Shown piece by piece: positions 41,840 through 41,866 of a DNA stretch of 64,000 bases. Location: assembly GCF_017348835.2 (NCBI RefSeq), contig NZ_CP071375.1. The stretch is one strand, 5' to 3'. The notes beneath the pieces are model-generated. The model worked only from the letters and a program-made list of their open reading frames with translations. It was not told the origin of the DNA and did no database searches. Numbering within the stretch: the stretch's first letter is position 1; each line of letters opens with the position of its first letter. The position numbers and the translations under genes are program-made. The DNA is from Escherichia coli. GTDB taxonomy: Bacteria; Pseudomonadota; Gammaproteobacteria; Enterobacterales; Enterobacteriaceae.

Positions 41840-41866
41840 ATTCCCGCTGTGGCCCACAGCGGGAAT
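41840..41866. repeat. 27-bp perfect palindrome immediately after yedF
   Basis: attcccgctgtgg-c-ccacagcgggaat: 13-bp arms, 1-nt centre, no flanking T-run. Confidence 0.6.

Follow-up and report, generated by a model that had tools for sequence, protein, structure and literature searches.

A stem-loop without a U-tract directly after yedF probably shields the 3' end of the yedE-yedF mRNA in Escherichia coli

We find that a perfect 27-bp palindrome directly behind yedF in Escherichia coli forms a stable, single-copy stem-loop whose pairing is under selection, which keeps its position at the yedF 3' end and which is independent of the neighboring gene yedK. This stem-loop, which lacks a U-tract, probably belongs to the 3' untranslated region (UTR) of the yedE-yedF mRNA, where it would act as an exonuclease barrier that defines the 3' end of the transcript, having arisen from a terminator-type hairpin. 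We favor this reading because the predicted fold is stable, its pairs covary, its alleles vary as expected of a loop, a hairpin is retained after yedF while hairpin sequences turn over, the element persists without yedK and its sequence features match those of a described class of U-less stem-loops at transcript ends (PMC6061677). The hairpin is an ordinary, previously undescribed member of that known class.

The window that we analyzed is a stretch of 64,000 nt (64 kb) of E. coli DNA, in which the genes around the palindrome all lie on the + strand. The yedE coding sequence (40398-41603), assigned from its open reading frame (ORF) and the RefSeq annotation of the matching locus of E. coli O145 str. 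RM9872, encodes the selenium-metabolism membrane protein YedE/FdhT. It is followed by yedF (41600-41833; stop codon TAA at 41831-41833), which encodes a TusA-like sulfurtransferase-like protein of 77 amino acids. The palindrome, ATTCCCGCTGTGG-C-CCACAGCGGGAAT, occupies 41840-41866, beginning 6 nt past the yedF stop. Its 13-nt arms are 100% complementary, with 1 nt between them. After the palindrome comes a T-rich, G-poor spacer of 75 nt (41867-41941), which carries the yedK Shine-Dalgarno sequence AGGAGG at 41931-41936, and then yedK itself (41942-42610, ATG at 41942), a member of the SOS response-associated peptidase family that lies outside the conserved unit. The first-pass annotation, made by a reader who had only the letters of the window and its ORFs, had thus described the element accurately as a 27-bp perfect palindrome with 13-bp arms around a single base, just after yedF and about 75 bp before yedK.

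The 13+1+13 palindrome is real and far beyond chance. Perfect hairpins whose arms span 13 nt or more around a loop no longer than 8 nt appeared in none of 30 first-order Markov shuffles of the window, and simple arithmetic (about 64000 × 9 × 4^-13) predicts approximately 0.009 such hairpins per window. The sole other hairpin of this kind within the window is a canonical terminator at 19447-19478. Over the 181 nt surrounding the palindrome, the window is 100% identical to E. coli O145 str. RM9872, and this region has a single copy in each of 5377 out of 5426 complete E. coli genomes.

Perfection over 27 bp is a property of one allele of a conserved stem of 10 to 12 bp with a loop of 3 to 5 nt. 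The identical 35-mer occurs in 633 of the 5377 genomes; it differs by 1 base in 3251 and by 2 or 3 bases in 1493. Among ten sampled E. coli alleles, the differences concern two places, the outermost pair and arm position 13. The outermost pair is broken by a change of the last T to C in most strains, or of the first A to C in strain N96, and arm position 13 can be G, A or T without a compensating change. The TTCCCGCTGT/ACAGCGGGAA stretch is constant across the ten alleles, as is the core stem, apart from one C-to-A change adjoining the loop in a single strain. Uncompensated variation at arm position 13 is what a hairpin should display, because a loop of one base is impossible and positions 41852-41854 therefore form the loop. 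As an RNA, the palindrome is a 12-bp stem pairing 41840-41851 with 41855-41866 around this 3-nt loop, with 41841-41850 and 41856-41865 as the core conserved in E. coli.

Folded by itself, this hairpin has a predicted energy of -20.2 kcal/mol. Within its 136-nt intergenic context it dominates the fold, being present in both the minimum free energy and the centroid structures, and the context has a z-score of -3.6 against shuffled sequences. Other Escherichia, many Citrobacter and two subspecies of Salmonella enterica (arizonae and diarizonae) carry homologues of the hairpin at the same offset from the yedF stop. We aligned 17 of these sequences (16 of them distinct) from Escherichia, Salmonella and Citrobacter and asked how well they support the 12-pair helix. 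In this alignment 92.2% of cells are paired, compared with 38 to 60% when the 3' partners are slid, and 6 of the 12 pairs change on both sides, giving a covariation score that was reached by none of 500 shuffles. Pair 18-42 is U-A in E. coli and C-G elsewhere; pair 24-36 is C-G, U-G or U-A, so that G-U intermediates occur; and three and five standard pair types are found at pairs 27-33 and 28-32, respectively. The inner five pairs switch identity while staying complementary, and the lower stem, CUCCCG/CGGGAG, is invariant across the three genera. The covariation and the excess of paired cells therefore indicate selection for pairing but not for base identity in the upper stem. The first-pass annotation had proposed looking for conservation of the palindrome in relatives as a check; the stem proved to be both conserved and covarying there, so a lack of conservation does not count against the element.

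The element stays with yedF whatever gene comes next. In a tblastn comparison of related loci, those of E. coli and two of Franconibacter were the only ones with yedK behind yedF, and other genes stand downstream of the hairpin in E. whittamii, S. arizonae and C. braakii. The similarity of E. coli to its relatives stops at the 3' edge of the hairpin, beyond which the content varies by species. Some Citrobacter have yedF and fliE in convergent orientation with the hairpin between them; in C. braakii (2239-2269 of that locus) it occupies the 45-nt gap between the two stop codons. In the window, yedK and a gene for a 379-residue leucine-rich-repeat (LRR) protein separate the hairpin from fliE (44176-44520). 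Since the hairpin is kept with yedF whatever lies downstream, it is an element of the yedEF 3' end rather than a yedK control site.

Some further features of this variable region were recorded. In E. coli MLI105 (locus L007, 432-728), similarity to the window stops approximately 80 nt past yedF; the hairpin is retained and a fragment of a Tn3-family (DUF4158) transposase stands in place of yedK. The LRR gene of the window is an intact ORF on the - strand (42688-43827) directly after yedK. The corresponding gene of O145 RM9872 is annotated as the pseudogene espR3, with an internal stop, and an acetyltransferase gene, yedL, lies between espR3 and yedK in that strain. yedL appears to be absent from the window, in which yedK and the LRR ORF are separated by 42611-42687. 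An AT-rich imperfect inverted repeat (42677-42711) overlaps the stop of the LRR gene.

These results bear on the two functions that the first-pass annotation had offered, a site for a dimeric DNA-binding protein or an RNA stability element: the second is favored here and the first is not. A duplex-DNA operator for a dimeric regulator, for instance a repressor controlling yedK, would account for the perfect symmetry in this strain and for the outer half-sites CTCCCG/CGGGAG, whose invariance across Escherichia, Salmonella and Citrobacter is the pattern that a sequence-specific reader would also give. Its CTGT...ACAG motif, moreover, adjoins a gene annotated as SOS response-associated. However, an operator is very unlikely. 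Six of the 12 pairs covary through several pair types and the inner five change while remaining complementary, so that upper-stem bases are free as long as they pair, and arm position 13 varies uncompensated. Unrelated hairpins replace the site in other genera. It lies downstream of yedEF, with no overlapping promoter-like site. The site is also kept in loci without yedK, where the neighbor is different or convergent; this tells strongly against an operator, and we reject a yedK operator on that ground.

The LexA box has the consensus CTGT-N8-ACAG. The palindrome reads CTGT-GGCCC-ACAG, a spacing of 5 rather than 8 nt, and the CTGT and ACAG letters change in Salmonella and Citrobacter; a LexA (SOS) box was therefore rejected. 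We also rejected a bacterial selenocysteine insertion (SECIS) hairpin. Such hairpins directly follow an in-frame UGA, and the yedF stop is UAA; moreover, an Rfam scan of 40000-44000 at E values up to 10 returned no match at the hairpin and a chance rli48 match elsewhere. A palindrome at 19643-19666 of the window, judged by its letters, looks like a genuine protein-binding site, in contrast to the one behind yedF: it is AT-rich and perfect (TTTATGTGAT-ACAA-ATCACATAAA) and contains TGTGA-N6-TCACA, the core of the CRP consensus. It lies close to the canonical terminator named above (19447-19478), a textbook bidirectional intrinsic terminator of the form A7-hairpin-T7 (ACAAAAAAACCTGCCGAAGCAGGTTTTTTTGT) between yecJ-like and yecR-like ORFs, in what we take to be the azuC/AzuCR region of the K-12 map. 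azuC is under CRP control.

The hairpin is also not a member of a dispersed repeat family. In the 5377 E. coli genomes the 35-mer maps to a single locus each, the median of two matching places being the self-match of a palindrome on both strands. Within the 64-kb window, we found no further copy of the 13-mer arm with 0 or 1 mismatches, a search that the first-pass annotation had suggested for the genome, and matches with 2 mismatches were at chance level. A covariance model of the hairpin (R1) scored 39.8 bits at the yedF site, and in 335 kb of related loci all of its matches above 20 bits were at the yedF 3' end. The next best score in the window was 18.4 bits, at an unrelated hairpin (16700-16729). 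The first-pass annotation did not recognize the palindrome as a REP unit, which is borne out, and we reject a REP/BIME element or other dispersed repeat, given a single locus in E. coli and no second copy in the window or in the 335 kb. REP/BIME elements act as intercistronic mRNA stabilizers, for example between malE and malF. Like them, the yedF hairpin is an extragenic palindrome and an RNA hairpin able to block 3' exonucleases, and REP-like sequences replace it in several Citrobacter; unlike them, it is single-copy and not dispersed, and it has no similarity to the REP-like sequences found in these loci.

A feature acting at the DNA level, either a degenerate member of a dispersed repeat or an attachment or target site for the variable genes between yedF and fliE, would fit the abrupt end of similarity at the 3' edge of the hairpin, the differing content downstream among species and the REP-like elements in the same slot of several Citrobacter. 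Yet we consider it extremely unlikely, in view of the single locus in E. coli, and because there is no copy or half-copy on the fliE side of the inserted genes, elsewhere in the window or, outside the yedF 3' end, in the related loci. The hairpin is also present in genomes that have no insertion, such as that of C. braakii. An att-site duplication in particular was rejected, because no second copy lies toward fliE.

Further U-less hairpins adjoin stop codons in the window, two perfect ones among them. At 56074-56099 (+), a hairpin with 11-bp arms (CTGACTGGTGG-TTTC-CCACCAGTCAG) begins 6 nt past the end of an ORF of 207 codons' worth of protein (207 aa; 55444-56067, +); as no U-tract follows, its architecture equals that of the yedF hairpin. 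The other, at 16704-16726 (-), also has 11-bp arms (CCCCTCTGCAT-C-ATGCAGAGGGG) and no U-tract. It lies 15 nt past the stop of an ORF at 16742-17782 (-), overlaps the start of the next - strand ORF (15158-16717) and is the second-best match of the yedF hairpin model, at approximately 18 bits.

Hairpins after yedF are common among Enterobacteriaceae, although many have unrelated sequences. A YedF scan with one genome per species yielded 80 loci, in which YedF is 94 to 100% identical. In 73 of the 80 species, a hairpin of -12 kcal/mol or better lies within 60 nt of the yedF stop, with a median start 4 nt after it; the same energy was reached in 31% of shuffled sequences and in 56% of windows from the yedE coding sequence. 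In several Citrobacter the slot is taken by REP-like palindromes (GCCGGATG...), and in Kluyvera, Leclercia and some further Enterobacteriaceae by canonical terminators with a hairpin and T-tract. Only 12 of the 73 hairpins have a tail with at least 5 T, which makes U-poor hairpins the norm behind yedF in this family. Three homologues of the E. coli hairpin (loci L017, L018 and L034) have T-rich tails. Both Franconibacter loci with yedK (L047 and L049, approximately 2235-2315) carry a U-poor GC hairpin, GGCCCTGC...GCAGGGCC, right after the yedF stop, with yedK approximately 80 nt downstream; the arrangement is like that of E. coli and the hairpin sequence is unrelated.

The main rival to an exonuclease barrier is that the hairpin is itself a working terminator, whether weak or factor-assisted intrinsic or bidirectional, which insulates yedK from yedEF and, ancestrally, insulated yedF from fliE. 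Several observations point this way. Like canonical intrinsic terminators, the hairpin is a GC-rich stem-loop of similar size and energy that starts a few nucleotides (here 6 nt) past a stop codon. Homologues in Citrobacter MGH106, Citrobacter NCU1 and S. arizonae have T-rich tails, and T-tracts follow analogues of the hairpin in Kluyvera, Leclercia and Enterobacter. Folding is about as good on one strand as on the other: in a test of G-U against A-C pairs, 177 of 192 cells were paired on the + strand and 167 of 192 on the - strand, with similar fold energies (p = 0.34), so that the test favors neither strand. The placement of the C. braakii hairpin between convergent genes is likewise consistent with bidirectional termination.

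Against a terminator stands what surrounds the stem in E. coli. The first-pass annotation had argued from the missing U-tract that this is not a canonical intrinsic terminator, and we agree: the tail is AUAUCGUUGCC, and our consensus scan for promoters and terminators, whose U-tract criterion was at least 5 T in the 8 nt directly 3' of the stem, gave no call at the palindrome. Directly after the stem, the window reads ATATCGTT, other E. coli have CATCGTTA or CATCGTTG, and tails such as AUAUCGUU and CAUCGUUA have 3 to 4 U in 8. No A-tract was found upstream of the hairpin. The same scan, which is weak evidence on this point, found no sigma-70-like promoter for yedK in the 75-nt spacer, a result that is compatible with read-through from the hairpin into yedK. 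We therefore regard a working terminator as possible but unlikely. Note that the barrier and terminator readings are not mutually exclusive.

The closest likeness is to a class of stem-loops described in E. coli by Dar and Sorek in 2018 (PMC6061677), who mapped E. coli 3' ends and observed that the steady-state ends of Rho-dependent transcripts lie exactly at stable stem-loops lacking both a U-rich tail and an upstream A-tract. These U-less stem-loops have a mild downstream bias of C over G and, once transcription has terminated diffusely further downstream, shield the RNA from PNPase and RNase II; REP elements make up only 24% of them (PMC6061677). The yedF hairpin resembles the class in its sequence features: a stable GC-rich stem-loop just past a coding sequence, no U-rich tail or A-tract and no annotated REP element. 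In the 76 nt at 41867-41942, the ratio of C to G is 24:12, and C minus G is at the 94.5th percentile of 76-nt windows on the + strand, a mild bias that lends only mild support. The spacer is a possible Rho-loading (rut-like) stretch, a yedK leader or both. Unlike the members of that class, the yedF hairpin is followed 75 nt downstream by a co-directional gene with a strong Shine-Dalgarno sequence, and it may lie inside a longer yedEF-yedK transcript.

Rho termination has been reported nearby. Adams et al. (2021; PMC7815308) reported a significant Rho termination region inside yedE (MG1655 position 2008838, +), which suggests premature Rho-dependent termination and poor expression of yedEF in standard media. 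No 3' end in that dataset is annotated with yedF or yedK, there is no yedE, yedF or yedK entry in the TERMITe and SMRT-Cappable-seq supplementary data, and a literature search on yedF/yedK, a yedF terminator and a yedK promoter returned nothing on the hairpin.

An exonuclease barrier could operate as follows. Given no U-tract, RNA polymerase would mostly read through the hairpin, and the transcript would run on into yedK or be released further downstream, where Rho may load on the C-rich, G-poor spacer. PNPase and RNase II, both 3'-to-5' exonucleases, would then degrade the tail as far as the foot of the hairpin, which would thereby set and protect the mature 3' end of the yedEF mRNA. This end would fall 0 to 3 nt past ...CAGCGGGAA. 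The hairpin would descend from a terminator-type hairpin, as which it may still serve in some relatives.

A more speculative scenario, which we hold to be improbable, is that the element began as a U-tract-independent bidirectional terminator between yedF and fliE, that its CUCCCG/CGGGAG stem is read by a specific factor and that its 3' edge was a preferred entry point for yedK, the LRR effector and the other variable genes by which yedF and fliE are kept apart in Escherichia and Salmonella.

Our analysis assigns a likely role to one unannotated intergenic element of E. coli, and its practical value is modest. The hairpin marks the probable 3' boundary of the yedEF mRNA, whose products are connected with selenium and sulfur-carrier functions, and, judging from the arrangement, part of the expression of yedK may come from read-through. 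The hairpin is, in addition, a U-less 3' stem-loop in which covariation can be seen cleanly. Furthermore, REP elements and canonical terminators take its place in sister genera, which supports the view that these three types of hairpin are functionally interchangeable at gene ends.
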